A stretch of 64,000 nucleotides of DNA. Source: Escherichia coli (GTDB taxonomy: Bacteria; Pseudomonadota; Gammaproteobacteria; Enterobacterales; Enterobacteriaceae). The position numbers and the translations under genes were made by a program. Shown one piece after another: positions 29,199 to 52,429 of the stretch (the first letter of the stretch is position 1; the number at the start of each line of letters is the position of its first letter). Under the pieces are notes generated by a model, which saw only the letters and a list, made by a program, of their open reading frames with translations, ran no database searches and was not told the origin of the DNA. The DNA lies in the NCBI RefSeq assembly GCF_013122565.1, contig NZ_CP053258.1. One strand, written 5' to 3'.

Positions 29199-29512
29199 AA
29201 CAGTCAATTGTCTCACTGGCGCAAGTCATTCGTTCGAAAAATGCCGGTCCTTACGAACTGGTTTTAGATATTTTATTTAAAACGAAAGAAAACTATGAGC
29301 GAGTTAAATCATCAGGGCAATTAACCCCAGAACTGATTGCGCGCTTATATCATGTTGAACCTGACTTTATTCATCGTATTGTCTGGTTTGATCCTTCTAA
29401 CGCAGTAAAAATCGTCATGCCACGAGATATTATCTCCGGGAATGTAGGTGACAATGATGTCTATGGTGCACAGCAACATGCACCTTTATTAAATATGAGT
29501 TTCGATTTGTAA
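29195..29512 (+). CDS. uncharacterised small protein, 105 aa, translationally coupled to the preceding ORF
   Basis: ATG at 29195 overlaps the upstream stop (ATGA); no recognisable motif. Confidence 0.55.
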   Translation: MKQSIVSLAQVIRSKNAGPYELVLDILFKTKENYERVKSSGQLTPELIARLYHVEPDFIHRIVWFDPSNAVKIVMPRDIISGNVGDNDVYGAQQHAPLLNMSFDL

Positions 29513-29672
29513 AAATCCGAACACTTTTAGCCAACTGACATCCCATCACTTATTGCAGTTCAACACTTCAGCTATTTGTAAGGTTGTAATAGCAGGTAGA
29601 TGCCTGAGTCTCTATTCAGGCATCTACTTCTCCTGATTCTGATTTATCGCCGTGCACCTGATGGAGGAAAAA

Positions 29673-30953: not shown

Positions 30954-31060
30954 GGGGGATCTTAAGCAATCAGAAGCCAATGACTACGCATTTTTATAAG
31001 CCGGATCATGAAGTTAGACGGCAATTAAGTAACACTAACGTTTAAGGTGAAAAGTGAAAT

Positions 31061-32713
31061 ATGTCCAAACCATTTATCTGGCAAGAACCGTTTCTACAAA
31101 ATAAAGACGGTACAGAATATACATTAATTAGCGATCAACATATTACAGTAACGGAATTAGACGGCGAAGAAGTGATAAAAATCGCTCCTGAAGCATTAAC
31201 GCTGCTTGCCCGGCAGGCATTTTATGAAGCCTCTTTTTTCTTACGTTCCGCTCATTTGCAACAGGTCGCCAGCATTCTTAACGATCCGCAGGCCAGTAGT
31301 AATGATAAATACGTTGCGTTGCAGTTATTACGTAATGCTGAAGTCTCAGCAAAAGGGGTATTACCCAACTGTCAGGATACCGGCACCGCAACTATTGTTG
31401 CCAGGAAAGGGCAACAGATATGGACCGGAGGTAACGACGCTGAAGCCTTAAGCAAAGGCATTTACACCACTTTCCAGGAAAATAATCTGCGCTTTTCACA
31501 AAATGCGCCGCTGGATATGTATACCGAAGTCAATACGCAAACCAATCTCCCGGCGCAGATTGATATCAGCGCCGTCGCTGGTGATGAGTACCATTTTCTC
31601 TGTGTTAATAAAGGGGGCGGCTCCGCCAATAAAGCCACGCTTTATCAGGAAACCAAATCCTTATTGCAACCAGAAAAACTGACCGCATTTTTAATCGAAA
31701 AAATGAAATCGCTGGGCACCGCTGCCTGCCCGCCTTACCACATCGCCTTTGTCGTCGGAGGGCTTTCAGCCGATCAAACCTTAAAAGTTGCCAAGCTGGC
31801 TTCTACGAAATATTACGACAATTTGCCCACCAGCGGAAACGAGCAGGGACAAGCATTCCGTGATATTGAGCTGGAAAAAGTGATGCTCGAGGCCAGTCAG
31901 CAATTTGGTATTGGTGCGCAATTTGGGGGTAAATATTTCGCTCATGATATTCGCGTCATTCGTCTGCCGCGTCACGGTGGCTCCTGCCCGATAGCTATGG
32001 CGCTCTCCTGTTCAGCCGATCGCAATATCAAAGCAAAAATTAACAAGCACGGTATCTGGCTGGAAAAACTCGAACACAATCCGGGGCAATATATTCCAGC
32101 CTCACTATGGGAAGAAAATCACGCGCAACATGTACAACTGGATCTAAACCGTCCGTTGCGTGACGTGATGCAGGATCTCGCCAGATTACCGGTAGGTACC
32201 CGCGTGTCGTTAAGTGGTCCCATCGTAGTGGCGCGCGATATCGCCCACGCCAAAATAAAAGCGCGGCTGGATAGCGGCGAATCGATGCCGGAGTACCTGA
32301 AGCATCATATTGTCTATTACGCTGGCCCGGCGAAAACACCGGAGAACATGGCCTGCGGTTCACTAGGTCCAACCACGGGCGGTCGAATGGACGGTTATGT
32401 CGATACCTTCCAGGCTGCTGGCGGCAGTCTGGTGATGTTATCGAAAGGTAACCGCAGCCAGCAGGTCACCGATGCCTGTCACAAACATGGTGGCTTCAAT
32501 CTGGGAAGTATTGGCGGTGCAGCTGCGTTACTGGCGCAAGAATATGTCAAAAGTCTGCGTTGCCTGGAATACCCGGAGCTGGGTATGGAAGCGGTGTGGA
32601 TGATGGAAGTGGAAAATCTGCCCGCATTCATCCTGGTAGATGATAAAGGCAATAATTTCTTTAGTCAGTTTGAGCAGCAACACCGCTGCGCCAGTTGCCC
32701 TGCGGGACATTAA
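31061..32713 (+). CDS. class I (Fe-S) fumarate hydratase family protein, FumA/FumB paralogue; candidate mesaconase
   Basis: 550 aa, full-length similarity to FumA as remembered (blocks [55 protein letters not shown]); context suggests mesaconate hydration. Confidence 0.85.
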
Positions 32714-32722
32714 GGAAAATGA

Positions 32723-33325
32723 ATGGAAGCGCGAATTTCAACTGAACGGCATGTGCAGCGCCAGCAGAAATTGAAGGAACAGGTCGATACGCGCGTCGCG
32801 GCGGCGATAGAGAAAAAAGGGATCTTGATTGTTTTCACCGGCAATGGCAAAGGGAAATCCACTGCCGCGTTTGGTACGGTGACGCGCGCGGTGGGTCATG
32901 GCAAAACGGTGGGGGTTGCGCAGTACATCAAGGGGCAATGGGACAACGGCGAATACAACCTTCTCCAGCCGCTCGGGGTTGAGTTTCATATTATGGGAAC
33001 CGGTTTTACCTGGGAGACACAGAACCGGCAAGCGGATATCGACGCGGCGAAAGAGGTCTGGTCGGAAAGCAAACGGATGCTGGCTGACAAGCGTTACGAC
33101 TTAGTGGTGCTTGATGAGCTGACCTATATGCTGGCTTACCATTATCTGGATACCGAAGAAGTGATCGCTTCTCTGCAAAACCGCCCGGCACAACAAAGTG
33201 TCATTGTCACCGGACGCGGTTGCCACAGTCAGATATTAAAAATGGCGGATACGGTCAGCGAAATCCGCCCCGTCAAACATGCTTTTGATAACGGCATTCA
33301 GGCCCAGCCGGGTATCGACTGGTAA
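32723..33325 (+). CDS. cob(I)alamin adenosyltransferase, BtuR/CobA-family paralogue
   Basis: 200 aa with P-loop GNGKGKSTAAFG and full-length similarity to BtuR as remembered; AAGGA RBS; last gene of the operon. Confidence 0.85.
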   Translation: MEARISTERHVQRQQKLKEQVDTRVAAAIEKKGILIVFTGNGKGKSTAAFGTVTRAVGHGKTVGVAQYIKGQWDNGEYNLLQPLGVEFHIMGTGFTWETQNRQADIDAAKEVWSESKRMLADKRYDLVVLDELTYMLAYHYLDTEEVIASLQNRPAQQSVIVTGRGCHSQILKMADTVSEIRPVKHAFDNGIQAQPGIDW

Positions 33326-33328
33326 TAA

Positions 33329-33356
33329 CTGCGCCTGGCATCCCGCCAGGCGCAGG
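33329..33356. terminator. bidirectional terminator between the B12-operon end and the convergent LysR gene
   Basis: Perfect 11-bp inverted repeat ctgcgcctggc / gccaggcgcag around a 5-nt loop, followed by gtttt. Confidence 0.7.
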
Positions 33357-33358
33357 TT

Positions 33359-34264
33359 TTACATCTCCTGCGGTACGACCGATTTCGCCAGCAACCATTC
33401 ACGAAATTGCTGCAAGTGCGGCGAGTCAGACTTCTCTTCCTGCCACGTCATAATAAAACGATTACCGGTACGAATAGGCACATCACAGGGAATCACCATA
33501 TCGCCACTATCCAAATCATGTTGAATAGCGAACCGTGGTAACAGCGCCACGCCGAGATTAGAGCGCACGGCGGCAATCAACATTGAAAGCAAATCGAAAC
33601 GTGGCCCGTTGTTGACCAGCGGACTGCTAACGCCAGATAAAGCAAACCACTCTTCCCAGCCAGTAATACGGGTGCTTTGATGCAGAAGTGGTAACTCAGT
33701 AAGCAGTTCTGCCACTGACAGTTTTTGATCGGACATTGCAAGCAAACTGCCGCTGCATACCGGCAAAATCTCCTCTTCAAAGAGATATTCTACTTCCGCC
33801 CAGGGCGCGCAAAAATTTTCGCGCATAATGACAGCATCGTACTCCCGATTAAGAAAATCGCCGTTATTAGCTAAAGAATGAATATTAACAATAATATCGG
33901 GATGTAACTTTGTGAATTCATGTAAATTTGGGATTAACCAGTGGGTACTAAAAGTAGGATTAACGGCAAGTTCAATAACCTGAACCGTAGGCTGCCAGGT
34001 CATAATGGTATTGGTATCGCGTTCCAGCTTATTTAATGTTTCTTTTACTATCCCCAGGTAATACTTCCCTGCATCATTAAGAAAAATACGTTTTTTAGAG
34101 TGTGAAAATAACGGAGTACGTAAAAATTCCTCCAGCGCACTTACTTGTCTGAATACTGCACTTTGGGTTAACGCTAACTCCTCTGCCGCTCTGGTATAAC
34201 TTTCATGACGTGCGACGACCTCAAAAGTCACCAGCAGTTCCGTTTTAGGTATTTTTCCTCGCAT
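33359..34264 (-). CDS. LysR-family transcriptional regulator
   Basis: ORF 33359..34294 trimmed to the Met after a ggaagg RBS (MRGKIPKTELLVTFEVVARHESYTRAAEELALTQSAVFRQVSALEE is a typical LysR HTH); about 301 aa. Confidence 0.85.
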   Translation of the reverse strand: MRGKIPKTELLVTFEVVARHESYTRAAEELALTQSAVFRQVSALEEFLRTPLFSHSKKRIFLNDAGKYYLGIVKETLNKLERDTNTIMTWQPTVQVIELAVNPTFSTHWLIPNLHEFTKLHPDIIVNIHSLANNGDFLNREYDAVIMRENFCAPWAEVEYLFEEEILPVCSGSLLAMSDQKLSVAELLTELPLLHQSTRITGWEEWFALSGVSSPLVNNGPRFDLLSMLIAAVRSNLGVALLPRFAIQHDLDSGDMVIPCDVPIRTGNRFIMTWQEEKSDSPHLQQFREWLLAKSVVPQEM

Positions 34265-34854
34265 AATGCCTTCCGTGAAAAAATAACAATTCAAAAAATT
34301 ATTTTATAAAAAACAGTAGCGCTAATGAATATCATAATTCAAATAAACAAACCAGTCAGCTATATGTCTAACCAGGAAAATAAAGTGACAATAATCCTAA
34401 AACAGGAATTTCACCTCAGTTATCCGCATGCAATGCTTTAAAGCCATTATTGCAAGAATATTATTCATATACATGAATATACTCTAAATAAGTCGAGTTG
34501 GAGGAAGGGAACAAATAATGAATTTCCAGAAGCTTACATAAGTAAGTGACCTGGGTGAGCGAACATCGATGCAGCACATGCAACTTGAATTATGACAAGT
34601 ATACAATGATAAATTTAGATACCCTATGTTATATATTATCTATGTCCGGTTAAATTGAATGAGTCATGGCCTTCAAAGACATCGCAAAAGATAATTTCTC
34701 TTTAACAATAAGCCAGATTTACCACTTGTAAAAATTGCTATCGCCACATACACTACGCGCGTTTTCTTTCCCTTTTGCTGGCTGCTGACCGGAAAGACAA
34801 AATTACCCTCGCAATACAGGGGGTTGTTTAACGTCTATATTTCAGGACAGCGTT

Positions 34855-36252
34855 ATGCATCATCTTTCAAGGCTTGATAAAGCCTTTCTGCGCAAAGGGA
34901 TCCAACTTTCCCGCGCCAACAATATTGTTTCATTATCTCGTCCATCAGGTGTCAGTGCCCGCGTACTGCTGCCAGACGAACTGCCGCTGGAAGAAAAAGC
35001 AGTAACACAACTGCTTGATTTTGCAGAAGTGAAGCTACCAGACCACCCAGGTTATGTACGCCAGACGTGTGCGACGCCAGATTTTCATCCCGGCAATGGC
35101 GTCCCCGTTGGCGCGGTGGTAGCCTCAACGCCGGATTTAGTCATTCCCGCCGCCATCGGCACCGATATTTCTTGTGGCATGCGGCTGCTGACGACCGGAA
35201 TAACACTTGAGCAAGCCGAAGCGCATAAAGACGTCATCACTCAGCGGTTAACGCAAGTGTTACTGCAAAATGAGCGCGATGTTCCGTTATCTGCACGAGC
35301 GTTCACCGCGCTTTTTGATGGCGGGCCGGCAGATTGCATGTCGGCCTTGCCATCAGCAGGTCTCTGGACACGCACGAATATCCCCCGAATGGTACAAGAG
35401 ATTGACCGCTGCATTGGGCTGAACGAGCATAAAAGTCATTCGCGTTATGCCCCACCCGCCCTGCTGGCAACGGACCGCGCATTACTCCGCGACCCTTGTC
35501 TGGGTACGCCGGGTTCAGGTAATCATTTTATTGAACTTCAGGTAGTTGATAGCGTGATCGATCGCCATGTAGCCTGGCAACAAGGGCTGAAAACAGGCGA
35601 TATCGTGGTGATGATCCATAGTGGATCGCGAGATGTCGGCTTTTACGTCGGACGACGCTGGACGGACCGTGCCCGCGCAGACTGGCCCGCTGGGCATAAA
35701 CATCCACAAAGCGGGTTATATGGTCTGGCTGGTGGACTGGCGGAGGAATATCTACAAGCGATGGGAATGGCGGCGCGTTACGCATGGTTAAATCGCGTGA
35801 CCATTACGGAAATGGTGCGCGTATGTTTTGCCGATTTATTCCATCAGGATGAATCACATCTGGTGGTGGATGTGCCGCATAACATCATCCTTCGCGAGCA
35901 TGAGATGAATATTCATCGCAAAGGCGCAACACCGGCACGTGCGGGCGATCTGGCGTTAATCCCCGGTTCAATGGGCGATTATTCGTGGCTTGCGGTAGGT
36001 TGCGGCAACCCGGAGTGGTTGTGGTCATGCAGTCACGGAGCAGGACGCAGCCAGCGTCGGCAGGCCATGCGCGCACACGCGACTGAAGAGTCAACGCTGC
36101 CGTGGCAATGCGTAACACTGCGTGAAGAACGGCGTATTGAGGAAGCGCCAGCTGCTTATAAAGATATTGGTCCGGTTATCGAAGCCCAACAAGAAGCTGG
36201 ATTAATTCAGCCAGCGGTCAGATTTCGACCGTGGTTAACGTTTAAGGCATAA
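34855..36252 (+). CDS. RtcB-family RNA ligase paralogue (465 aa, N-terminally extended)
   Basis: Motifs typical of RtcB: PDFHPGNG, GTDISCGM (cf. GVDIGCGM), and HGAGR near the C-terminus; divergent from the LysR gene across 590 bp. Confidence 0.75.
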   Translation: MHHLSRLDKAFLRKGIQLSRANNIVSLSRPSGVSARVLLPDELPLEEKAVTQLLDFAEVKLPDHPGYVRQTCATPDFHPGNGVPVGAVVASTPDLVIPAAIGTDISCGMRLLTTGITLEQAEAHKDVITQRLTQVLLQNERDVPLSARAFTALFDGGPADCMSALPSAGLWTRTNIPRMVQEIDRCIGLNEHKSHSRYAPPALLATDRALLRDPCLGTPGSGNHFIELQVVDSVIDRHVAWQQGLKTGDIVVMIHSGSRDVGFYVGRRWTDRARADWPAGHKHPQSGLYGLAGGLAEEYLQAMGMAARYAWLNRVTITEMVRVCFADLFHQDESHLVVDVPHNIILREHEMNIHRKGATPARAGDLALIPGSMGDYSWLAVGCGNPEWLWSCSHGAGRSQRRQAMRAHATEESTLPWQCVTLREERRIEEAPAAYKDIGPVIEAQQEAGLIQPAVRFRPWLTFKA

Positions 36253-36274
36253 AAAAGGCCATCATACGATGGCC
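36251..36274 (-). terminator. rho-independent terminator of the sdh-suc transcript / SdhX
   Basis: Hairpin ggccatc-gtat-gatggcc followed on the minus strand by a U-run (plus-strand aaaaaa at 36251-36256); begins immediately after the RtcB-like stop codon. Confidence 0.75.
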
Positions 36275-36349
36275 AACCATGTCGAAACCGACAGCCCTTC
36301 GCCATTCCTGTAGAGGGAAGCGGCGAGGGCTATTTCTTATTACAGATAT
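36251..36349 (-). ncRNA. sdhX: putative SdhX (RybD) sRNA from the sucD 3' UTR
   Basis: About 100 nt between the sucD stop (36350) and the terminator; contains ...caggaauggcgaagggcugucgguuucgacaugguuggccaucguaugauggccuuuu, which matches my recollection of the SdhX 3' region. Confidence 0.5.
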
Positions 36350-37219
36350 TTATTTCAGAACAGTTTTCAGTGCTTCACCGATATCCGCCAGGCTGCGAAC
36401 GGTTTTCACGCCTGCGGCTTCCAGAGCCGCGAATTTCTCATCCGCAGTCCCTTTCCCACCGGCAATGATGGCACCTGCGTGGCCCATACGTTTGCCTTTC
36501 GGCGCAGTCACACCAGCGATGTAACCTACAACTGGCTTGGTAACGTGCTCTTTGATGTACGCTGCTGCTTCTTCTTCAGCGCTACCGCCGATCTCACCGA
36601 TCATCACGATCGCTTCGGTCTGCGGATCTTTTTCGAACATTTCGAGGATGTCGATAAAGTTAGAGCCAGGGATCGGGTCACCGCCGATACCAACACAGGT
36701 CGACTGACCGAAACCGTAATCCGTGGTCTGTTTAACCGCTTCATAGGTCAGTGTACCGGAACGGGAAACGATACCCACTTTACCCGGTTTGTGAATGTGA
36801 CCAGGCTGGATACCGATTTTGCATTCACCTGGGGTGATAACGCCCGGGCAGTTCGGGCCGATCATACGAACGCCGGCTTCATCCAGTTTCACTTTCACAG
36901 TCAGCATATCCAGCGTCGGGATGCCTTCAGTGATGGTGATAATCAGTTTGATGCCTGCGTCGATGGCTTCCAGAATGGAGTCTTTGCAGAACGGTGCTGG
37001 TACGTAGATAACAGAAGCGGTAGCGCCAGTGGCAGCAACGGCTTCACGCACGGTGTTGAACACCGGCAGGCCGAGGTGGGTGGTGCCGCCTTTACCTGGG
37101 GTTACGCCGCCAACCATTTTAGTGCCGTATGCAATAGCCTGTTCTGAGTGGAAAGTCCCCTGGCTACCGGTAAAACCCTGGCAGATAACCTTGGTGTTTT
37201 TATCAATTAAAATGGACAT
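36350..37219 (-). CDS. sucD: succinyl-CoA synthetase alpha subunit
   Basis: 289 aa, [45 protein letters not shown]. Confidence 0.95.
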
Positions 37220-38385
37220 TATTTCCCCTCCACTGCGGCAACAACCTGCTGAGCTGCATCCGTCAGACCTTTTGCTGCAATAATATTCAGGCCGCTGTCA
37301 GCCAGTTTCTTCGCGCCGAGTTCGGCGTTGTTACCTTCCAGACGTACCACGACCGGTACGTTAACACCCACTTCCGCTACCGCGCCGATGATACCGTCAG
37401 CGATCAGGTCGCAACGAACGATACCGCCGAAGATGTTAACCAGAACGGCTTTCACTTTGTCGTCAGAGAGGATGATTTTGAACGCTTCGGTTACACGTTC
37501 TTTGGTTGCGCCGCCGCCAACGTCCAGGAAGTTAGCCGGTTCGCCGCCGTGCAGTTTAACGATGTCCATCGTACCCATCGCCAGACCTGCGCCGTTAACC
37601 ATACAACCGATGTTACCGTCCAGCGCAACGTAGTTCAGTTCCCACTGTGCAGCTTGTGCTTCACGTGGATCTTCCTGCGACTGGTCACGCATTTCGCGCA
37701 GATCAGGCTGGCGGAACAGTGCGTTGCCATCAGCGCCCAGTTTGCCGTCGAGGCAAATCAGATCGCCCTGTTTGGTAATGACCAGCGGGTTGATTTCGAT
37801 CAGCGCCAGGTCACGCTCCAGGAAAATGGTCGCCAGGCCCATGAAGATTTTGGTGAACTGCTGAACCAGTTTACCTTCCAGACCAAGTTTGAACGCCAGC
37901 TCGCGTCCCTGATACGGCATCGGGCCAGTCAGCGGATCAAGCGCAACTTTATGGATCAGGTGCGGAGTTTCTTCCGCCACTTTTTCGATTTCCACGCCGC
38001 CTTCGGTGGAGGCCATAAAGACCACGCGACGTGAACTACGGTCTACAACGGCACCGAGATACAGCTCTTTAGCGATATCGGTCGCCGCTTCAACCAGAAT
38101 CTGGTTAACCGGTTGGCCATTGGCATCTGTTTGATACGTTACCAGACGCTTGCCCAGCCAGTTTTCTGCAAAAGCACGGATGTCTTCTTTGCTGTTTACA
38201 ACTTTCACACCGCCCGCTTTACCGCGGCCACCAGCGTGAACCTGACATTTCACTACCCACGGACCGGCACCGATTTTTGAAGCGGCTTCTTCTGCTTCGC
38301 GCGGAGTAGTACAGGCATAACCCACCGGTGCTGGTAAGCCATAGCGGGCAAAAAGTTGTTTTGCCTGATATTCATGTAAGTTCAT
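37219..38385 (-). CDS. sucC: succinyl-CoA synthetase beta subunit
   Basis: 388 aa, [20 protein letters not shown]; its stop overlaps the sucD start. Confidence 0.95.
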
Positions 38386-38467
38386 GTGTTCTGTCCATCC
38401 TTCAGTAATCGTTATCTTTTAAACCGTAGACCGAATATTTCGTATCGCTTCCGGGTATTGTCGGTCA

Positions 38468-38640
38468 CCCGTAGGCCTGATAAGACGCGTCAGCGTCGCA
38501 TCAGGCATCGCTTGTCGGATGCGGCGCGAGCGCCTTATCCGACCTACATCGGTGCTTCCCGTAGGCCTGATAAGACGCGTTAAGCGTCGCATCAGGCTTC
38601 AATGGCCGGAGAAGGCGATAATGCCTTATCCGGTCTACAG
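38468..38640. repeat. REP/BIME cluster in the sucB-sucC spacer
   Basis: Two tandem ~85 bp units each beginning cccgtaggcctgataagacgcg...gcgtcgcatcaggc, typical REP palindromes. Confidence 0.75.
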
Positions 38641-38660
38641 TGCAGGTGAAGCTTAAACTA

Positions 38661-39878
38661 CTACACGTCCAGCAGCAGACGCGTCGGATCTTCCAGCAAC
38701 TCTTTGATCGTTACCAGGAAGCCCACGGATTCGCGACCATCGATCAGACGGTGATCGTAGGACAGCGCCAGGTACATCATCGGCAGGATCTCAACCTGAC
38801 CATTCACCGCCATCGGACGATCTTTGATAGCGTGCATACCCAGAATTGCGCTCTGCGGCGGGTTGATGATCGGCGTAGACATCAGGGAACCGAACACACC
38901 ACCGTTGGTGATAGTGAAGTTACCACCGGTCAGATCTTCAACGGTCAGCTTGCCGTCACGGCCTTTGACTGCCAGCTCTTTGATTTTCTTCTCGATGTCT
39001 GCCATGCCGAGGGTATCGACATCACGCAGTACCGGCGTCACCAGGCCGCGCGGCGTAGAAACCGCCATGCTGACGTCGAAATAGTTGTGGTAAACCACAT
39101 CATCGCCGTCGATAGAAGCATTCACTTCCGGGTAACGTTTCAGGGCTTCAACCACCGCTTTCACGTAGAAGGACATAAAGCCCAGACGGATGCCGTGACG
39201 TTTTTCAAACGCTTCACCGTACTGCTTACGCAGATCCATAATCGGCTTCATGTTGACTTCGTTGAACGTGGTCAGCATGGCGGTGGAGTTTTTCGCTTCC
39301 AGCAGACGCTCTGCCACACGCTTACGCAGGCGAGTCATCGGGACACGTTTTTCGCTACGTGCAGCCAGAGCCGGTTGCGCCGCCGGAGCAGCCGCTGCCG
39401 GAGCAGACTCTTTCGCCGGGGCTTTCGCCAGATGTTTTTCCACATCTTCACGAGTCAGACGACCACCCACACCGGTGCCTTTAATGGCGCTGGCGTCGAG
39501 ATTGTGTTCAGCCAGCAGGCGACGGATCGCCGGGCTTAACGCATCGTTGTTTTGCTCTTCCAGAGACGCCTGCTGGCGTTGCGCCGGAGTGGACGCTTTC
39601 TCTTCAGATTTGGCGCTGGTTTCTTTACCGGCGCTGTTGCCTTCACGCAGGCGACCAAGGATCTGACGAGACGTTACCGTTGTACCTTCATCTTCCAGAA
39701 CCGCATCCAGAATGCCGTCTGCTGATGCCGGTACTTCCAGTACCACTTTGTCAGTTTCGATTTCTACCAGCACTTCATCACGTACGACTGCGTCGCCGGG
39801 TTTTTTATGCCAGGTTGCGACGGTGGCATCGGCTACGGATTCAGGCAGGTCAGGGACCAGAATATCTACGCTACTCAT
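38661..39878 (-). CDS. sucB: dihydrolipoyllysine-residue succinyltransferase (2-oxoglutarate dehydrogenase E2)
   Basis: 405 aa with N-terminal lipoyl domain ([13 protein letters not shown]), Ala/Pro linker and catalytic domain with DHRLIDG. Confidence 0.95.
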
Positions 39879-39892
39879 TGTGTATCCTTTAT

Positions 39893-42694
39893 TTATTCGA
39901 CGTTCAGCGCGTCATTAACCAGATCTTGTTGCTGTTTCTGGTGAACGGACATATACCCTACCGCCGGAGAGGCGGAGGCCGGGCGGCCTGCATAACGCAG
40001 AGAAGCCCCAAACGGAATCACTTCACGGAAATGATGCTGGCTGCAGTACCATGCGCCCTGGTTGAGCGGCTCTTCCTGGCACCAGACAAAATCCTTGACG
40101 TGAGCAAACTGCTGCAACACTTCCTGCATCGCTTTATGCGGGAACGGGTAGAGTTGCTCGATACGCACAATGGCGACATCGTGTTGATTGTTCTTACGAC
40201 GCTGTTCCAGCAGGTCGTAATAAACCTTACCAGAACACATCACTACGCGCTTCACGCCCTTCGGATCAAGCTCGTCGATTTCACCGATGGCTGGCAGGAA
40301 GGTGCCGTTCGCCAGTTCTTCGAGGCTGGAAACCGCCAGCGGATGACGCAGCAGGGATTTCGGCGACATCACGACCAGCGGACGACGCATCCCGCGCAGC
40401 GCCTGACGACGCAGCATGTGGTAAACCTGTGCCGGGGTAGACGGTACGCACACCTGCATGTTTTGCTCAGCGCAAAGTTGCAGATAACGTTCCAGACGCG
40501 CGGAGGAGTGCTCCGGCCCCTGCCCTTCGTAACCGTGTGGCAGCAACATCACCAGGCCACACATCCGGCCCCATTTCTGTTCGCCAGAGGAGATGAACTG
40601 GTCGATAACCACCTGAGCACCGTTAGCGAAGTCACCGAACTGCGCTTCCCAGATGGTCAGAGTGCGTGGTTCTGCGGTGGCATAACCGTATTCAAACGCC
40701 AGCACGGCTTCTTCAGACAGTACGGAGTCCCAGACACGGAACGCGCCCTGGCCGTTATGGATGTGTTGCAGCGGCGTGTAAGTGGAACCGTTAGACTGGT
40801 TGTGGATCACCGCGTGGCGGTGGAAGAAGGTACCGCGACCGGAGTCTTCACCCGACAGGCGAACCGGAATGCCTTCGTCAACCAGCGTGGCGTAAGCGAG
40901 GTTTTCCGCGCCGCCCCAGTCGAACAGTTTCTCACCGGCTGCCATCGCCTGGCGATCGCCATAAATCTTGGCAACGCGAGACTGCATTTCAACTGCTTCC
41001 GGCACCGTGCTGATGCGTTTAGCCAGTTCCTGCAGGCGCTTCATCTCAACTTTGTTCGGGTACTCTTCGTCCCATTCGTGGTTGAGGTACGGCGACCAGG
41101 TGAAGGAGTGCATGTTCATCGGACGCCACTCTGCTACCACGCAATCGCCAGCATCCAGCGCATCGCGGTACAGGTTAACCATCTCGGTGGCATCTTCCAG
41201 CGTCGCGACTTTTTCCTGCTCCAGCTTGTCTGCGTAGATTTTGCGCGGCGTTGGATGTTTTTTGATTTTCTGATACATCAGCGGCTGGGTTGCGCTCGGC
41301 TCGTCGGCTTCGTTGTGGCCGTGACGGCGGTAGCACACCAGGTCGATGAAGACATCACGTTTAAAGGTGTTACGGAAATCGAGCGCCAGACGGGTCACAA
41401 AGGCAACGGCTTCCGGATCATCCGCGTTAACGTGGAAAATCGGTGCCTGAACCATCTTACCGATATCAGTACAGTACGGCGTCGAACGTGCATCCAGCGG
41501 ATTAGAGGTGGTGAAGCCAACCTGGTTGTTGATAACGATACGTACCGTACCGCCAACTTCATAACCACGCGCTTTCGACATGTTCAGGGTTTCCTGAACC
41601 ACGCCCTGCCCGGTCACTGCGGCGTCACCGTGGATGGTGATTGGCAGCACTTTGTTGCTGCTCGGCTCATCGAGTCTGTCCAGACGGGCACGAACAGAAC
41701 CGATAACGACCGGGCTGACAATCTCAAGGTGAGACGGGTTAAACGCCAGCGCCAGGTGCACCAGGCCGCCATCGGTCTGGAAGTCAGACGAGAAGCCCAT
41801 GTGGTATTTCACGTCGCCTGTGCCGAGGTGTTCTTTATGTTTACCGGCAAACTCGTCGAACAAGTCTTGCGGTTTTTTACCCAGCACGTTCACCAGCACG
41901 TTCAGACGACCACGGTGCGCCATCCCGAGAACCACTTCGCGGGTGCCGCTGTTGCCCGCGTGGCGGATCATCTCTTTAAGCATCGGGATTAACGCGTCAC
42001 CGCCTTCCAGCGAGAAGCGTTTTGCGCCAGGGAATTTTGCGCCGAGGTAACGTTCAAGGCCTTCAGCGGCGGTCAGTTCGCTTAAGAAGCGTTTTTTCTC
42101 TTCGCTATTGAAAGTCGCGCGACCAGACTCGATACGCTGTTGGATCCAGCGTTTTTCTTCGGTGCTGGTAATGTGCATATACTCGGCGCCAATCGGGCCG
42201 CAGTAGGTTTGCTTCAGGGCTTCCAGCAGTTCACCGAGTTTCATGGTTTCTTTGCCGCTGGCAAATGAACCGACGTTGAAGGTCTCCTGGAAGTCTGCTT
42301 CGGTCAGATCGTGGAAAGACGGATCCAGATCGGCCACTTTATCTTGCTGCCACAGTCCCAGCGGATCGAGATTCGCATGCTGGTGACCACGGAAGCGGTA
42401 TGCGTTAATGAGCTGCAGGACTTTAACCTGCTTCACATTGGTGTCAGGGTCGGAGATCGTTGAAGAGTAACGTGAAGCGTCTTTCGCCAGGCGGCGGAAA
42501 TATTCACGCGTTTGAGAGTGGAATTGATCCGGTTTGACTCCCGTACCAGGTAACTGCTGGAACGTCGAACGCCAGTTAGCGTCAACCGAGTCAGGATCGG
42601 TTAAGAAGTCTTCATAGAGCTGTTCTATCCAGCTCTGGTTTGCGCCAGAGAGGTAAGAAGAGTCCAACCAGGCTTTCAAAGCGCTGTTCTGCAT
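39893..42694 (-). CDS. sucA: 2-oxoglutarate dehydrogenase E1 component
   Basis: 933 aa [34 protein letters not shown]. Confidence 0.95.
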
Positions 42695-42872
42695 CGTGAT
42701 CCCTTAAGCATCTTTTTTATGCTTACTTCGCCGTGGATACTACCACGCACAGTGATGTGCGTGCCGGGGTTCACTTGCGAGCTCTTGTCTACGTAGTGGC
42801 TCGCGAAGGAACCTTTAAAAACTGTCTTAGTGTCAGGGGCAGTTTTTAAAGATTTCCTGCATTTCTTTGTTA

Positions 42873-42993
42873 CGCCTGATGCGCTGCGCTTATCAGGCCT
42901 ACGGGTAATGACGTGTAGGCCGGATAAGGCGTTCACGCCGCATCCGGCACTGGTTGCCTGATAAGACGCTTGAGCGTCTTATCAGGCCTACGG
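42873..42993. repeat. REP/BIME cluster in the sdhB-sucA spacer
   Basis: gcctgatgcgctgcgcttatcaggcctacg ... gcctgataagacgcttgagcgtcttatcaggcctacg palindromic units. Confidence 0.75.
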
Positions 42994-42994
42994 T

Positions 42995-43711
42995 TTACGC
43001 ATTACGTTGCAACAACATCGACTTGATATGACCGATGGCGCGCGTCGGGTTCAGCCCCTTCGGACATACACTGACGCAGTTCATGATGCTGTGACAGCGG
43101 AATACACTGAATGCATCGCTCAAACCGTCGAGGCGGCTGTCAGTCTCGGTATCACGGCTATCGATCAGGAAACGATATGCCGCTAACAAGCCTGCCGGGC
43201 CGATAAACTTATCGGGATTCCACCAGAAAGACGGACAAGAGGTTGAACAACATGCGCAGAGAATACATTCATACAGCCCGTCGAGTTTTTCGCGCTGCTC
43301 TGGCATCTGTAAATGCTCGCGAGCTGGCGGATTTTGTTCATTATTCAACAGGTAAGGCTTAATTTTCTCATATTGCGCATAGAATTGTCCCATGTCTACC
43401 ACCAAATCGCGGATCACCGGTAAACCTGGCAGAGGGCGAATCACAATCTTCTTGCCCGGCTGGTTGAGTGCCGAAATTGGGGTAATACAGGCCAGACCAT
43501 TCTTGCCGTTCATGTTCAGACCGTCGGAACCGCACACACCTTCACGACAGGAGCGACGGAACGACAGGCTGGGATCTTTCTCTTTCAGCTGGATAAGCGC
43601 ATCCAGCAGCATCATGTCACGACCTTCTTCCGCTTCCAGGGTGTAATCCTGCATACGCGGAGCATCATCAACATCCGGGTTATAGCGATAAATTGAAAAC
43701 TCGAGTCTCAT
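42995..43711 (-). CDS. sdhB: succinate dehydrogenase iron-sulfur subunit
   Basis: 238 aa with Cys clusters (CREGVCGSDG, CILCACCSTSCP, CHSIMNCVSVCP). Confidence 0.95.
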   Translation of the reverse strand: MRLEFSIYRYNPDVDDAPRMQDYTLEAEEGRDMMLLDALIQLKEKDPSLSFRRSCREGVCGSDGLNMNGKNGLACITPISALNQPGKKIVIRPLPGLPVIRDLVVDMGQFYAQYEKIKPYLLNNEQNPPAREHLQMPEQREKLDGLYECILCACCSTSCPSFWWNPDKFIGPAGLLAAYRFLIDSRDTETDSRLDGLSDAFSVFRCHSIMNCVSVCPKGLNPTRAIGHIKSMLLQRNA

Positions 43712-43726: not shown

Positions 43727-45493
43727 TTAGTAAGTACGAATCTTCGGCGGGAATGCCGGACGCAGTTTCGGTTCCATGTTGACGCTTCGGCGCGTCATGG
43801 ATTCCGACTCTGGCAGATACAGGGAGTGGCACAGCCAGTTTTCATCATCACGATCCGGGAAGTCGAAGCGGCTATGCGCGCCACGGCTTTCGGTACGGAA
43901 GTTGGCAGAAACAGCCGTTGCATACGCCGTTTCCATCAGGTTATCCAGTTCCAGGCACTCAACGCGCTGGGTGTTGAACTCGCTGGAAGTGTCATCCAGA
44001 CGGGCATTTTTCAGACGCTCGCGGATAACTTTCAACTGCTCAAGCCCTTTCGCCATCGCATCACCTTCACGGAAGACCGAGAAGTTATGCTGCATACATT
44101 CTTGCAGCGCTTTACGAATCGCCACCGGATCTTCACCGTTACGATTATTGTTCCAGCGGTTCAGACGATCCAGAGATGCTTCAACATCAGACTCGCTGGC
44201 ATCGCGCAATGCGCCCTGCTCGGCGATAGACTCTTGCAGATGCAGACCCGCTGCGCGACCAAAGACCACCAGGTCCAGCAGCGAGTTGCCGCCCAGACGG
44301 TTAGCACCGTGTACCGATACGCAGGCAATTTCACCTACCGCGAACAGCCCCGGAACAACCACATCTTCGCCTTTCTCATTCACAGTCAGCGCCTGACCGG
44401 TAACTTTGGTCGGAATACCGCCCATCATGTAGTGACAGGTTGGGATAACCGGAATCGGCTCTTTCACCGGATCAACGTGAGCAAAGGTACGGGAAAGCTC
44501 CAGGATACCCGGCAGACGGGATTCGAGAACTTCTTTACCCAGGTGATCGAGTTTCAGTTTCGCGTGTGGCCCCCACGGACCATCACAGCCGCGACCTTCA
44601 CGGATTTCAATCATGATGGAACGCGCCACCACATCACGGCCCGCCAGGTCTTTGGCGTTCGGCGCATAACGCTCCATAAAGCGTTCGCCATGTTTGTTCA
44701 GCAGATAACCGCCTTCACCACGGCAACCTTCGGTGACCAGTACGCCCGCACCGGCAATGCCGGTCGGGTGGAATTGCCACATTTCCATATCCTGCACCGG
44801 TACGCCTGCGCGGATAGCCATGCCGACACCGTCACCGGTGTTAATGTGGGCGTTAGTGGTGGACTGATAAATACGCCCTGCCCCGCCAGTCGCCAGCACG
44901 GTAGCGCGGGCTTTGAAATAAACCACTTCACCGGTTTCGATGCACAGTGCGGTACAACCCACCACCGCGCCATCCTGGTTTTTCACCAGATCCAGCGCAT
45001 ACCACTCGGAGAAAATGGTGGTGTGGTTTTTCAGGTTCTGCTGATAAAGCGTGTGCAACAGTGCGTGACCGGTACGGTCAGCCGCTGCCGCAGTGCGTGC
45101 CGCCTGCTCGCCGCCGAAGTTTTTCGACTGACCGCCAAACGGACGTTGATAGATACGACCATCATCGAGACGCGAGAACGGCAGGCCCATGTGTTCCAGT
45201 TCCAGAATCGCTTCCGGCCCGGTTTTACACATATATTCAATCGCGTCCTGGTCACCGATATAGTCCGACCCTTTCACGGTGTCGTACATATGCCATTCCC
45301 AGTTATCTTCATGGGTATTACCCAGCGCAACGGTAATGCCGCCTTGCGCAGAAACGGTATGGGAACGGGTCGGGAAGACTTTAGAGAGCAGCGCACAGGT
45401 CTGGCCGCTCTGGGAAATTTGCAGCGCCGCGCGCATACCTGCGCCGCCGGCACCAATCACAACTGCATCAAATTCTCTGACTGGCAATTTCAT
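43727..45493 (-). CDS. sdhA: succinate dehydrogenase flavoprotein subunit
   Basis: ORF 43727..45505 trimmed to [24 protein letters not shown] (FAD-binding GxGxxG); start overlaps the sdhD stop by 1 nt. Confidence 0.95.
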
Positions 45494-45840
45494 CACACAC
45501 CCCACACCACAACGAATCCATAAATCACGTAAACCACCAGTGCAACGACAATCACCAGTTGCAGCATCAGGCGCAAAGCCAGCGGTTTAACGTAGTCGGT
45601 CAACACCTGCCACATGCCGATCCAGGCATGGATCAAGATAGAAAACAGCGCCAGCAGGGTGAACACTTTGGTGAACGCAGAGGCGAAGAAACCGATCCAG
45701 ACTTCATATGTCAGTTCGCCACTGGTGGCGAAAAAACCGACCATATAAATGATGTAGAGCGTCAGGACGATAGCGGTAGCGCGAACGAGGATGAAATCAT
45801 GTACGCCATTGCGTCCTAATGCGGAGGCGTTGCTTACCAT
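45493..45840 (-). CDS. sdhD: succinate dehydrogenase membrane anchor subunit
   Basis: 115 aa hydrophobic ORF between sdhC and sdhA. Confidence 0.92.
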
Positions 45841-46223
45841 ACGAGGACTCCTGCGAGAAGTGAAAGCACGACAGTAATAACAAAGGAGATTTTGGCGGAG
45901 CGTTTACCCGCTTCGAATGTTTCTTCCAGATAGCCAAAATCCATCATCATGTGGCGAATACCTACGACGACGTGATACGCCAGAGCGGTAAGGATGCCCC
46001 ACATGATAAATTTGACGAAGAAGCTGCCCATAATCGCGGAAGCTTGCTCGAAACCTTCAGGGGAAGAGAGGCTGGTACCCAGAAGCCACAGCAGGATGCC
46101 CACAGCAACAAAGGTGATCACACCGGAAACGCGATGGAGAATGGACGCTATCGCCGTGATGGGGAACCGGATGGTCTGTAGGTCCAGATTAACAGGTCTT
46201 TGTTTTTTCACATTTCTTATCAT
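45834..46223 (-). CDS. sdhC: succinate dehydrogenase cytochrome b556 subunit
   Basis: ORF 45834..46238 trimmed to [34 protein letters not shown] (129 aa). Confidence 0.92.
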
Positions 46224-46931
46224 GAATAACGCCCACATGCTGTTCTTATTATTCCCTGGGGACTACGGGCACAGAGGTTAACTTTCTGTTACCTGGAGAC
46301 GTCGGGATTTCCTTCCTCCGGTCTGCTTGCGGGTCAGACAGCGTCCTTTCTATAACTGCGCGTCATGCAAAACACTGCTTCCAGATGCGAAAACGACACG
46401 TTACAACGCTGGGTGGCTCGGGATTGCAGGGTGTTCCGGAGACCTGGCGGCAGTATAGGCCGTTCACAAAATCATTACAATTAACCTACATATAGTTTGT
46501 CGGGTTTTATCCTGAACAGTGATCCAGGTCACGATAACAACATTTATTTAATTTTTAATCATCTAATTTGACAATCATTCAACAAAGTTGTTACAAACAT
46601 TACCAGGAAAAGCATATAATGCGTAAAAGTTATGAAGTCGGTATTTCACCTAAGATTAACTTATGTAACAGTGTGGAAGTATTGACCAATTCATTCGGGA
46701 CAGTTATTAGTGGTAGACAAGTTTAATAATTCGGATTGCTAAGTACTTGATTCGCCATTTATTCGTCATCAATGGATCCTTTACCTGCAAGCGCCCAGAG
46801 CTCTGTACCCAGGTTTTCCCCTCTTTCACAGAGCGGCGAGCCAAATAACAAACGGGTAAAGCCAGGTTGATGTGCGAAGGCAAATTTAAGTTCCGGCAGT
46901 CTTACGCAATAAGGCGCTAAGGAGACCTTAA
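46224..46931. promoter_or_regulatory. divergent sdhC / gltA promoter region
   Basis: About 700 bp non-coding between divergent sdhCDAB-sucABCD and gltA, AT-rich in its centre; individual sites not resolved. Confidence 0.5.
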
Positions 46932-48215
46932 ATGGCTGATACAAAAGCAAAACTCACCCTCAACGGGGACACAGCTGTTGAACTGGATGTGCTGAAAGGC
47001 ACGCTGGGTCAAGATGTTATTGATATCCGTACTCTCGGTTCAAAAGGTGTGTTCACCTTTGACCCAGGCTTCACTTCAACCGCATCCTGCGAATCTAAAA
47101 TTACTTTTATTGATGGTGATGAAGGTATTTTGCTGCACCGCGGTTTCCCGATCGATCAGCTGGCGACCGATTCTAACTACCTGGAAGTTTGTTACATCCT
47201 GCTGAATGGTGAAAAACCGACTCAGGAACAGTATGACGAATTTAAAACTACGGTGACCCGTCATACCATGATCCACGAGCAGATTACCCGTCTGTTCCAC
47301 GCTTTCCGTCGCGACTCACATCCAATGGCAGTCATGTGTGGTATTACCGGCGCGCTGGCGGCGTTCTATCACGACTCGCTGGATGTTAACAATCCTCGTC
47401 ATCGTGAAATTGCCGCGTTCCGCCTGCTGTCGAAAATGCCGACCATGGCAGCGATGTGTTACAAGTATTCCATTGGTCAGCCATTTGTTTATCCGCGCAA
47501 CGATCTCTCCTACGCCGGTAACTTCCTGAATATGATGTTCTCCACGCCGTGCGAACCGTATGAAGTTAATCCGATTCTGGAACGTGCTATGGACCGTATT
47601 CTGATCCTGCACGCTGACCATGAACAGAACGCCTCTACCTCCACCGTGCGTACTGCTGGCTCTTCGGGTGCGAACCCGTTTGCCTGTATCGCAGCAGGTA
47701 TTGCTTCACTGTGGGGACCTGCGCACGGTGGTGCTAACGAAGCGGCGCTGAAAATGCTGGAAGAAATCAGCTCCGTTAAACACATTCCGGAATTTGTTCG
47801 TCGTGCGAAAGACAAAAATGATTCTTTCCGCCTGATGGGCTTCGGTCACCGCGTGTACAAAAATTACGACCCGCGCGCCACCGTAATGCGTGAAACCTGC
47901 CATGAAGTGCTGAAAGAGCTGGGCACCAAAGATGACCTGCTGGAAGTGGCTATGGAGCTGGAAAACATCGCGCTGAACGACCCGTACTTTATCGAGAAGA
48001 AACTGTACCCGAACGTCGATTTCTACTCTGGTATCATCCTGAAAGCGATGGGTATTCCTTCTTCCATGTTCACCGTCATCTTCGCCATGGCCCGTACCGT
48101 TGGCTGGATCGCTCACTGGAGCGAAATGCACAGTGACGGCATGAAGATCGCCCGTCCGCGCCAGTTGTATACAGGATATGAAAAACGCGACTTTAAAAGC
48201 GATATCAAGCGTTAA
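46932..48215 (+). CDS. gltA: citrate synthase
   Basis: 427 aa, [36 protein letters not shown]; GGAGA RBS. Confidence 0.95.
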
Positions 48216-48243
48216 TGGTTGATTGCTAAGTTGTAAATATTTT

Positions 48244-48275
48244 AACCCGCTGTTCATATGGCGGGTTAATTTTTA
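48244..48275 (+). terminator. rho-independent terminator after gltA
   Basis: aacccgc-tgttcatatg-gcgggtt stem-loop followed by aatttttat. Confidence 0.7.
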
Positions 48276-48606
48276 TATGCCTAAATACAAATATTTGTAA
48301 AAATAAAATCCACTATCGGATATCCATATATTTTTAATAAAAATATATCGGTATGAATTATAAACAGTTCAGTGAACTTTAATCACCTATATTCCTGTCA
48401 GTCACATGAATAAATCACCAAACATAGCGCACCCCTATAATTTCCAATGGTTTATTCATTAAACAATTAATTCACGACATCAATTAATTACTTTTACATT
48501 TAATAAAATTAATAATATTTTTAAGAAAAACTAAAAACATTCGACAATCAAATAAGATATTCTTGCACCGATATACCTTTTTTCTTTTCTGTTAAAGGAC
48601 TCTGTT

Positions 48607-49173
48607 ATGTTTAAAGGACAAAAAACATTGGCCGCACTGGCCGTATCTCTGCTGTTCACTGCACCTGTTTATGCAGCTGATGAAGGATCCGGTGAAATTC
48701 ACTTTAAAGGTGAGGTTATTGAAGCGCCTTGTGAAATACATCAGGATGATATTGATAAAGAAGTTGAACTCGGTCAGGTGACCACCAGCCACATTAATCA
48801 AACTCATCACAGCGATGCCGTTGCTGTCGACCTGCGCTTGGTGAATTGCGATTTGGAAAACTCCAACAACGGTTCCGGTGACAAGATTTCTAAAGTTGCA
48901 GTCACCTTTGATAGCTCAGCGAAAACCACCGGCGCAGATCCGATTCTCAACAACACCAGCACGGGTGAAGCCACCGGCGTCGGCGTGCGTTTATTGAATA
49001 AAAATCAAACCAATATCGTTTTAGGCACCGCTGCTCCAGACATCGACCTGGCTCCGACCTCCAGCGAGCAAACGCTGAATTTCTTTGCCTGGATGGAACA
49101 AATTGATCAGGCAACACCAGTAACGCCAGGTGCAGTTACGGCGAATGCAACCTACGTGCTGGATTATAAATAA
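48607..49173 (+). CDS. ybgD: fimbrial major subunit-like protein
   Basis: 188 aa with signal peptide and paired Cys typical of chaperone-usher pilins; first gene of a four-gene fimbrial operon after an AT-rich leader. Confidence 0.85.
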   Translation: MFKGQKTLAALAVSLLFTAPVYAADEGSGEIHFKGEVIEAPCEIHQDDIDKEVELGQVTTSHINQTHHSDAVAVDLRLVNCDLENSNNGSGDKISKVAVTFDSSAKTTGADPILNNTSTGEATGVGVRLLNKNQTNIVLGTAAPDIDLAPTSSEQTLNFFAWMEQIDQATPVTPGAVTANATYVLDYK

Positions 49174-49223
49174 GTATTACTTTGGCGGCGCTATCGCCGC
49201 CTTTCTTCAAATATTTATCAGGT

Positions 49224-51683: not shown

Positions 51684-51697
51684 TTAAGGAAATGAAA

Positions 51698-52429
51698 ATG
51701 ACATTTATGAAAGGACTTCCCCTTTTGTTGTTGGTAGCCAGTCTGTGCAGCCACGCAGCACTACAACCCGATCGTACTCGTATTGTGTTTAACGCTAATG
51801 ATAAAGCTACCAGTCTGCGAGTAGATAATCGTAGCGATAAACTCCCCTACCTCGCTTATTCCTGGCTCGAAAATGAAAAAGGGGAGAAAAGCGACGATCT
51901 TCTGGTCGCCCTGCCACCGATACAACGTCTGGAACCGAAAGCAACAACGCAGGTGCGGATAGTCAAGCAAGCCTCGACCGCGAAATTACCGGGCGATCGC
52001 GAAACGCTATTTTTCTACAATATACGTGAAATTCCTCCCGCCCCGGAAAAAAACAGCGACCATGCCGTTCTGCAGGTCGCCATCCAGAGCCGTATCAAGG
52101 TGTTCTGGCGACCGTCTGCGTTACGCAAGAAAGCAGGGGAAAAGGTCGAACTGCAGTTACAGGTCAGCCAGAATGGCAACCAACTTAGCTTAAAAAACCC
52201 GACCGGCTATTATCTGACAATCGCCTACCTGGGACGAAATGAGCAAGGCGTTCTCCCCGGCTTCAAAACCGTGATAGTTGCACCTTTTAGTACGGTCAGC
52301 ACTAATACCGGAAGCTATAGCGGCAGCCAGTTTTATCTCGGTTATATGGATGATTACGGCGCGTTACGCATGACGACGCTCAATTGTAGCGGACAATGCC
52401 GTTTACAAGCCGTGGAGGCGAAGAAATGA
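51698..52429 (+). CDS. ybgP: fimbrial periplasmic chaperone
   Basis: ORF 51674..52429 (TTG) trimmed to [20 protein letters not shown]; PapD-like chaperone of 243 aa. Confidence 0.85.

Follow-up and report, generated by a model that had tools for sequence, protein, structure and literature searches.

We found that both long spacers inside the sdhCDAB-sucABCD transcription unit of this Escherichia coli strain carry transcribed clusters of classical REP palindromes, arranged as two atypical BIMEs, which probably stabilise the upstream mRNA and partly attenuate read-through. Judged by sequence, the REP/BIME identity of both clusters is not in doubt, and we infer a stabiliser and attenuator effect in the strain of the window (the whole stretch of 64,000 nucleotides analysed here). 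Such clusters in the sdh-suc spacers are ordinary and have already been described in E. coli K-12, which our analysis confirms.

The genes sdhCDAB-sucABCD form one operon for succinate dehydrogenase and 2-oxoglutarate dehydrogenase, with an mRNA of roughly 10 kb. Open reading frames, megablast to E. coli genomes and the K-12 annotation place it on the minus strand of the window, in the order sucDCBA-sdhBADC, and define the genes that flank the two spacers:

37219-38385, minus strand: sucC
38386-38660, 275 bp: sucB-sucC spacer, with four REPs (Y-Z1-Y-Z1) within an older hairpin
38661-39878, minus strand: sucB
39893-42694, minus strand: sucA
42695-42994, 300 bp: sdhB-sucA spacer, with three REPs (Z1-Y-Z2) in alternating orientation
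42995-43711, minus strand: sdhB (stop codon 42995-42997)

A REP, or palindromic unit, is an imperfect palindrome of 30-40 nt with a y, z1 or z2 consensus (PMC3333891). Our flexible-loop pattern scan recovered nine canonical REPs in the window, compared with a mean of 0.1 and a maximum of two in 50 mononucleotide shuffles of the whole 64 kb, and seven of the nine fall in the two sdh-suc spacers. The cores of these seven measure 25-33 nt (31-40 nt with their tails), every element is intergenic, and the tetranucleotide GTAG, or CTAC on the complement, stands at the foot of each of the seven stems (42988-42991, 42915-42918 and 42899-42902 at sdhB-sucA; 38635-38638, 38561-38564, 38544-38547 and 38471-38474 at sucB-sucC). 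Queries containing the REPs match dispersed sites, at a median of at least 37 places per E. coli genome among the matches listed. Types were assigned from the G/T discriminator base and the length, following the definition in PMC3333891. The original prediction of tandem REP palindromes in both spacers, to be checked by alignment to the REP family, is thus upheld by seven canonical elements that, like the other REPs of the window, align to the classical consensus GCCTGATGCGACGC..GAGCGTCTTATCAGGCCTACGG. The range proposed for them, 38468-42993, spans exactly the tail of the first REP to the tail of the last, but leaves one arm of a hairpin that encloses the sucB-sucC array (38423-38437) just outside. 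Tandem REPs had also been expected between gpmA and aroG, where one canonical element was recovered but the second is decayed, so that no clear tandem array exists:

5332-5493: convergent gpmA/aroG spacer
5355-5390: intrinsic terminator of gpmA, upstream of both REPs
5409-5440: canonical Z1 REP, from pattern scan and alignment
about 5453-5485: degenerate Y-like REP, from alignment

In transcript sense, the REPs of the sdh-suc operon are oriented < > < at sdhB-sucA and < > < > at sucB-sucC, with linkers of 7-21 nt in both clusters and of 7 nt in the head-to-head pairs. Both clusters thus combine, as BIMEs do, two or more REPs in alternating orientation with short linkers, and the number of tandem units varies between strains at both spacers. 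BIME-1, a single z1 and y pair with a long L linker and often an IHF site, was rejected on the 7-nt linkers, the multiple copies and the lack of any match to the IHF consensus WATCAANNNNTTR inside either cluster, even with one mismatch. BIME-2, a tandem of z2 and y with a short S linker, was rejected as well: the single Y-Z2 pair, at sdhB-sucA, is joined with a Z1, and Y and Z1 units make up both the sucB-sucC array and the expanded alleles of sdhB-sucA. Because the clusters fit neither class, the best label for both on sequence criteria is "atypical BIME", a term that, in the summary of Bachellier et al. given in PMC3333891, covers y/z1/z2 chimeras with short linkers and tandem copies. They share with atypical BIMEs the alternation of REP and iREP, the short linkers, the mixture of z1, y and z2 and the strain-variable number of tandem units; there is no essential difference, the sucB-sucC array being additionally nested between the arms of an older hairpin.

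The sdhB-sucA cluster consists, in the direction of transcription, of the following elements:

42956-42991, minus strand: REP 1 (Z1, core 42956-42987) with GTAG tail, a perfect 15-bp palindrome
42915-42948, minus strand: REP 2 (Y, core 42919-42948) with CTAC tail, opposite to REP 1 across a head-to-head linker of 7 nt
42874-42902, minus strand: REP 3 (short Z2, core 42874-42898) with GTAG tail, from pattern scan and consensus alignment
42809-42855, minus strand: long AU-rich hairpin, not a REP, with a stem of about 17 bp downstream of the REPs, from inverted repeat and folds

The stem of REP 1 begins 7 nt after the sdhB stop codon, and its arms (42956-42970 and 42973-42987) are 100% complementary. 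Three differences separate it from its K-12 counterpart, each of which converts a stem mismatch into a pair, and the identical perfect palindrome occurs in none of the 2,916 E. coli genomes that carry REP 1. Binding and cleavage by TnpA-REP, the REP transposase, need a mismatch (bubble) in the stem, and in vitro the enzyme neither bound nor cut a y REP whose stem the equivalent GC-to-TT change had made perfect (PMC3333891). Such a bubble is present in six of the seven spacer REPs and absent from the Z1 REP at 42956-42987, which, being a perfect palindrome, is therefore predicted to be inert to TnpA-REP. REPs lying no more than 15 nt from a stop codon stall ribosomes according to Liang et al. 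2015, as reported in PMC12306157; since REP 1 starts 7 nt after the stop codon, it could also slow ribosomes that terminate at sdhB. The AU-rich hairpin is invariant across E. coli alleles in our alignment and also occurs in Salmonella, Klebsiella, Cedecea, Pluralibacter and others. In the light of the literature on RNase III (PMC5371410, PMC9731577), it is a likely candidate substrate of this enzyme in the sucA 5' UTR; the K-12 RNase III read-ratio peak, at 758515, falls in the Z2 REP, which puts it about 30 nt upstream from the hairpin.

At sucB-sucC, pattern scan and consensus alignment gave four REPs, which are enclosed by a long-range stem:

38605-38641, minus strand: REP 1 (degenerate Y, core 38605-38634) with GTAG tail, whose outer bases are the left arm of the enclosing stem
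38561-38597, minus strand: REP 2 (Z1, core 38565-38597) with CTAC tail
38514-38547, minus strand: REP 3 (Y, core 38514-38543) with GTAG tail
38471-38506, minus strand: REP 4 (Z1, core 38475-38506) with CTAC tail
38423-38437, minus strand: decayed half of a REP, TATTCGGTCTACGG, which serves as right arm of the enclosing hairpin and precedes UUUAAAA

Where this spacer is REP-less and 93 bp long, the two enclosing arms make a simple hairpin of 12-15 bp. Our analysis shows that the sucB-sucC array is nested in a pre-existing hairpin, whose base coincides with a mapped RNA 3' end.

Both spacers are predicted to fold into very stable RNA structures, of -118.8 and -116 kcal/mol, far more stable than those of shuffled sequences (z = -7.75 and -7.56). 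Published Term-seq data for K-12 grown in LB to OD 0.4 (PMC7815308 supplementary file 1) place a 3' end at 758531, which corresponds by alignment to window position 42869, 5 nt past the Z2 stem of sdhB-sucA, and another at 762981, or window position 38418, 6 nt past the stem that encloses the sucB-sucC cluster. The two ends are modest, with about 1,400-1,570 reads where the terminator of the operon has about 19,800. Only one of three growth conditions lists them (PMC7815308), and Term-seq registers termination and processing alike. Their position just past the sdhB-sucA REPs and the sucB-sucC enclosing hairpin fits the stabiliser and attenuator reading, and the suggestion that the palindromes act as mRNA stabilisers or processing sites thus agrees with the 3' ends published for the downstream edge of each cluster. 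For the sdh-suc operon, the literature describes an internal terminator that part of the transcription reads through (PMC4161252). Neither spacer gave a canonical intrinsic terminator in a simple consensus scan; after the enclosing sucB-sucC stem comes no more than UUUAAAA, short of the U-run that directly follows the GC-rich stem of such a terminator. No canonical promoter appeared in our scan of the spacers, a type of scan to which the internal suc promoter is invisible.

In K-12, both clusters have the same REP position, number, types and orientation as in the window. The sdhB-sucA spacers are 99% identical (300 bp in each strain) and differ by four substitutions, three of which perfect the REP 1 palindrome; the sucB-sucC spacers are 97% identical (275 bp in the window, 274 bp in K-12), and in them the two Z1 units have their loop and stem variants redistributed between each other. 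The expectation that the clusters would be ordinary is thus borne out by near identity with a known K-12 feature. Copy number had likewise been expected to vary between strains, which we quantified over 5,426 complete E. coli genomes. At sdhB-sucA, 1,636 genomes (30%) have no REP, 2,256 (42%) have three as in the window, and 1,378 (25%) have four or more, up to about ten, which gives an allele series of 0, 3, 4 and 6 to 10 REPs. The series at sucB-sucC is 0, 3-4 and 6 REPs: the spacer is REP-less in 3,400 genomes (63%) and window-like in about 979 (about 18%), and the remainder have mainly six. Strain 120899 is REP-less at both spacers, O157:H7 strain PV15-279 has three REPs at sdhB-sucA and none at sucB-sucC, and K-12 has REPs at both. 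All REP-less E. coli alleles and other genera examined (at least 120 loci in the genus scan, which left out S. enterica subsp. enterica and E. fergusonii) carry another stem-loop at both positions, and the REP-less sdhB-sucA hairpin is common to E. coli and Salmonella enterica subsp. arizonae. For S. enterica subsp. enterica, a length of 523 nt is reported for the sdhB-sucA spacer. Because the REP-less alleles have a different stem-loop at the same place, the selected feature looks like the hairpin rather than the REP.

The REP stabiliser between malE and malF and other REP barriers to 3' exonucleases are known systems for comparison. At malE-malF, as here, REP hairpins stand at the 3' end of the upstream cistron in a polycistronic mRNA, with 3' ends past the stem; different from malE-malF, a stabilising effect at sdhB and sucB is what we infer. 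We propose that the REP clusters, transcribed as part of the operon mRNA, would form highly stable stem-loops where the sdhB and sucB cistrons end. These stem-loops would most likely block 3'-to-5' exonucleases, by which the upstream sdhCDAB and sucAB segments would be protected, and would most likely also attenuate part of the read-through. Protection and attenuation together may produce the discrete internal 3' ends and help to set the relative output of the operon's three enzymes. The arrays themselves appear to grow, shrink and be exchanged for others, probably through unequal recombination and the action of the REP-associated transposase, which would give rise to the copy-number series among strains. 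REPs are known to protect against exonucleases (PMC6061677) and, between tandem genes, to serve as terminator and stabiliser at once; the preprint on the latter role stresses that the effects depend on context and that half-lives are not uniformly changed (bioRxiv 10.64898/2026.03.23.713779). REP325 in the yjdM-yjdN spacer, a dual terminator-stabiliser and the source of naRNA4, resembles the sdh-suc clusters as a multi-unit REP array between tandem operon genes and in its Rfam naRNA4 matches above threshold, but consists of six Y-Z2 units, whereas the sdh-suc spacers have three and four REPs, mainly Z1 and Y. Against a role as stabiliser or attenuator stand the modest K-12 3' ends, the negative result of the simple terminator scan, the context-dependence of REP effects and the observation that the REPs are dispensable at both sites, since they are missing from 30% of genomes at sdhB-sucA and from 63% at sucB-sucC.

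The REPs could instead be neutral or selfish REP/REPIN passengers, spread through permissive non-coding gaps by the REP-associated tyrosine transposase and recombination, without any selected function there, and the adjoining 3' ends could be incidental to any stable hairpin. The extreme polymorphism in presence and copy number would be expected of such elements, as would the independent assortment of alleles at the two sites in PV15-279, 120899 and K-12 and the zero to two REPs that other genera have at the same position. We nevertheless regard this explanation as rather unlikely: the published 3' ends coincide with the REPs, and because every allele and genus examined keeps some stem-loop at each of the two positions, the REPs seem to fill a functionally constrained slot, giving a structure otherwise provided by a unique hairpin.

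A role mainly at the DNA level, in which DNA gyrase, DNA polymerase I or IHF would bind or cleave the elements and these would act as topological insulators between heavily transcribed segments, appears very improbable. Functions of this kind are listed for REPs and BIMEs in general (PMC3333891), and the transcription unit around the clusters is indeed long and highly expressed, but an IHF consensus is absent in and between the REPs even with one mismatch, the linkers leave no room for the L motif of BIME-1, the arrays at which gyrase cleavage has been documented are BIME-2 (Y+Z2) while only one Y-Z2 pair is present here, and between a third and two thirds of strains have no REP at these sites. 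Rfam model RF02564 (naRNA4; gathering threshold 59.5) has two matches above threshold in the window, at 42918-42988 on the plus strand (83.5 bits), which takes in REP 2 of sdhB-sucA, and at 38474-38544 on the minus strand (74 bits), in sense with the operon, which takes in REP 3 of sucB-sucC. That the pairs encode naRNA4-like nucleoid-associated small RNAs, which act with HU in chromosome compaction, is nonetheless extremely unlikely, and we rejected naRNA4 as a functional label: the model derives from REP325 units, so that any Y-Z REP pair scores well and a match shows REP-pair identity rather than nucleoid function, the stronger match is antisense to the operon (51.1 bits, below threshold, on the sense strand), and REP325/naRNA4 itself is reported in a 2026 preprint to act locally as a 3' UTR element, without measurable nucleoid compaction (bioRxiv 10.64898/2026.03.23.713779).

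By themselves, the sdh-suc REP clusters matter little, as a known feature of K-12. Our survey adds the exact frequencies of REP-less and REP-bearing alleles for 5,426 genomes, the finding that sdhB and sucB are always followed closely by a stem-loop, REP or other, and the position of the sucB-sucC array inside a pre-existing hairpin. A doubtful but conceivable further reading is that the series of REP numbers might serve as a heritable rheostat, by which lineages would set their ratios of SDH, OGDH and succinyl-CoA synthetase with promoters and coding sequence untouched, and that the private perfect REP, which looks like a quasi-palindrome correction, might be both immune to the transposase and a stronger brake on SdhB translation or read-through. 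The three additions of our survey make the sdh-suc operon a handy natural system for asking whether the number of REPs tunes expression within an operon.

Two spacers inside the sdhCDAB-sucABCD operon, located on the minus strand of the window, hold seven of the nine REPs that a flexible REP pattern detected across the 64-kb window (mean in shuffled sequence: 0.1). We thus confirm, by pattern and by consensus alignment, the tandem REPs of the original prediction, and count three copies between sdhB and sucA and four between sucB and sucC; REP/BIME clusters in these spacers are an already known, ordinary feature.

Spacers and REPs, numbered in transcription direction
42695-42994, minus: sdhB-sucA spacer, 300 bp, 99% identical to the 300-bp K-12 spacer
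42956-42987, minus: sdhB-sucA REP 1, Z1
42919-42948, minus: sdhB-sucA REP 2, Y
42874-42898, minus: sdhB-sucA REP 3, Z2
38386-38660, minus: sucB-sucC spacer, 275 bp, 97% identical to the 274-bp K-12 spacer
38605-38634, minus: sucB-sucC REP 1, degenerate Y
38565-38597, minus: sucB-sucC REP 2, Z1
38514-38543, minus: sucB-sucC REP 3, Y
38475-38506, minus: sucB-sucC REP 4, Z1

REP orientation alternates in both clusters, and all seven units carry the GTAG/CTAC tail and fit the classical consensus on alignment. Because their linkers measure 7-21 nt and no IHF consensus was found in those of either cluster, both are "atypical" BIMEs by the definitions of PMC3333891, under which the BIME-1 and BIME-2 labels were rejected. 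The only two matches to Rfam naRNA4 in the window coincide with REP pairs of these spacers; that model was built from REP units, and the matches therefore merely restate REP identity. For the gpmA/aroG spacer, also predicted to carry tandem REPs, one canonical Z1 REP stands beside a normal terminator, and the second copy is only a decayed, Y-like REP. A lone Z1-like REP without recognisable GTAG/CTAC tail lies at 60348-60380.

The surrounding gene order, gal - gpmA/aroG - tol-pal - cyd - (island) - sucDCBA-sdhBADC - gltA, is that of an E. coli-type chromosome segment. Against a collection of 5,426 complete E. coli genomes, identity reaches no more than about 98.8% (1-20000; 38300-43100) or 96.9% (44000-64000). 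The window therefore represents a somewhat divergent lineage of E. coli, or else a near relative, outside this collection. Between cydA and sucD (20400-36350) lie the methylaspartate island (glutamate mutase / methylaspartate ammonia-lyase), a gene for class I fumarase, cobO, a regulator gene of LysR type and, at 34855-36252, an RtcB-family gene; the interval lacks mngR-mngA-mngB, present there in K-12 and the closest complete genomes. The 3'-UTR small RNA SdhX and its terminator (36249-36349, minus) are intact and K-12-identical; identity stops right past the T-run of this terminator, and the end of the RtcB-family gene stands there instead of mngR. Standard features matched at Rfam gathering thresholds are a seven-tRNA cluster with three RtT repeat elements (10375-11371; annotated as tRNA-Lys and tRNA-Val in L002, the E. 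coli locus that matches) and the CpoB/ybgF RNA thermometer (12298-12436).

The first sdhB-sucA REP (42956-42987) differs from K-12 by three substitutions, each of which restores Watson-Crick pairing where the K-12 stem has a mismatch, leaving a perfect palindrome with 15-nt arms. This REP occurs in 2,916 of the complete E. coli genomes, and no identical copy was found among them (best match 96.9%). Quasi-palindrome correction by template switching yields such mismatch-to-pair patterns, and the unit looks like its product. In vitro, a y REP without its mismatch was neither bound nor cleaved by the REP transposase (PMC3333891); on that result, the first sdhB-sucA REP is predicted to escape the transposase, to stay immobile and, as RNA, to fold into a stronger hairpin.

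Allele-specific queries of the 5,426 genomes bore out the expected variation in copy number, from 0 to ~10 REPs in sdhB-sucA and 0 to 6 in sucB-sucC. At sdhB-sucA, the Z1-Y-Z2 allele of the window, K-12 and O157 occurs in 2,256 genomes (41.6%), a REP-less 200-bp allele with the unrelated hairpin GCCGGGGAAATCCCCCGGC in 1,636 (30.2%), and (Z1-Y)n arrays of at least two 95-bp units, with up to four unit junctions (~10 REPs), in 1,378 (25.4%). At sucB-sucC, a REP-less 93-bp allele prevails (3,400 genomes, 62.7%), window/K-12-like long alleles account for ~979 (18%), and most of the rest are 365-bp alleles with 6 REPs. Every combination of states at the two spacers was seen.

Other structures accompany the REPs. 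A long-range inverted repeat (38627-38641 / 38423-38437) encloses the entire sucB-sucC array; since the same arms pair with each other in the REP-less 93-bp allele of other E. coli strains, giving a simple hairpin of 12-15 bp and then UUUAAAA, the array occupies the loop position of an older hairpin. Downstream of the sdhB-sucA REPs, an AU-rich hairpin of ~17 bp (42809-42855) is invariant across all E. coli alleles, with recognisable counterparts in Salmonella, Klebsiella, Cedecea, Pluralibacter and other genera; we infer that it is likely the "long stem-loop recognised by RNase III" of the sucA 5' UTR. A further small hairpin in this UTR (42777-42804, minus; CGCGAGCC...GCTCGC) has two alleles within E. 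coli, the alternative (AGCGGAC...GTCCGC) being present in Salmonella arizonae too; the stem survives via changes on both sides, and a second small indel difference lies ~40 nt downstream.

The proposed role of the REPs as mRNA stabilisers or processing sites is supported by K-12 Term-seq data (PMC7815308, supplementary file 1; LB, OD 0.4; coordinate register checked against thrL). One 3' end (758531; window equivalent 42869) lies 5 nt beyond the Z2 REP stem, and another (762981; 38418) 6 nt beyond the right arm of the hairpin that encloses the sucB-sucC array. Both are partial, given ~1,400-1,570 reads versus ~19,800 at the final operon terminator. Reports of an internal sdh-suc terminator with read-through (PMC4161252), of REPs as exonuclease barriers (PMC6061677) and of REP325 as a dual terminator-stabiliser (bioRxiv 10.64898/2026.03.23.713779) are consistent with this picture. 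According to the summary of Liang et al. 2015 in PMC12306157, REPs at most 15 nt from a stop codon reportedly stall terminating ribosomes; the first sdhB-sucA REP stem, 7 nt from the sdhB stop, falls inside this range, and the sucB REPs begin more than 20 nt past their stop.

Our outgroup scan covered species-representative genomes (at least 120 loci; S. enterica subsp. enterica and E. fergusonii lie outside this sample). The E. albertii sucB-sucC spacer (261 bp, 3 REPs) matches an E. coli allele of equal length and REP layout. Among the loci listed, several further enteric bacteria, for example Salmonella enterica subsp. arizonae and diarizonae, Citrobacter, Raoultella, Klebsiella oxytoca, Enterobacter and Pluralibacter, have REPs (0-2) or hairpins resembling them in precisely this place, the element being flanked in each case by conserved ...CACCTGCC(C/T)GTAG and CTAC(G/A)GGTTTAAAGATAACGATTAC; the site was therefore REP-occupied, or repeatedly targeted, since before the split of these genera. 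At sdhB-sucA, subsp. arizonae shares the GCCGGGG hairpin of the REP-less E. coli allele, so that the REP-less state is probably ancestral there. The 660-bp sdhB-sucA spacer of Superficieibacter electus (L016) holds one E. coli-type REP and then, in six tandem copies, a different palindromic repeat of ~80 bp (GTAGGCCCGGTAAGCGCAGCGCCACCGGGCA...); in this other genus, a second class of REP thus fills the slot. No REPs were found in Vibrio, Aeromonas, Pseudoalteromonas or other non-enteric loci covering these spacers, among those listed. A stem-loop lies shortly after sdhB and sucB in every allele and locus listed, which argues that selection keeps the hairpin, with REPs as one among interchangeable means of supplying it.
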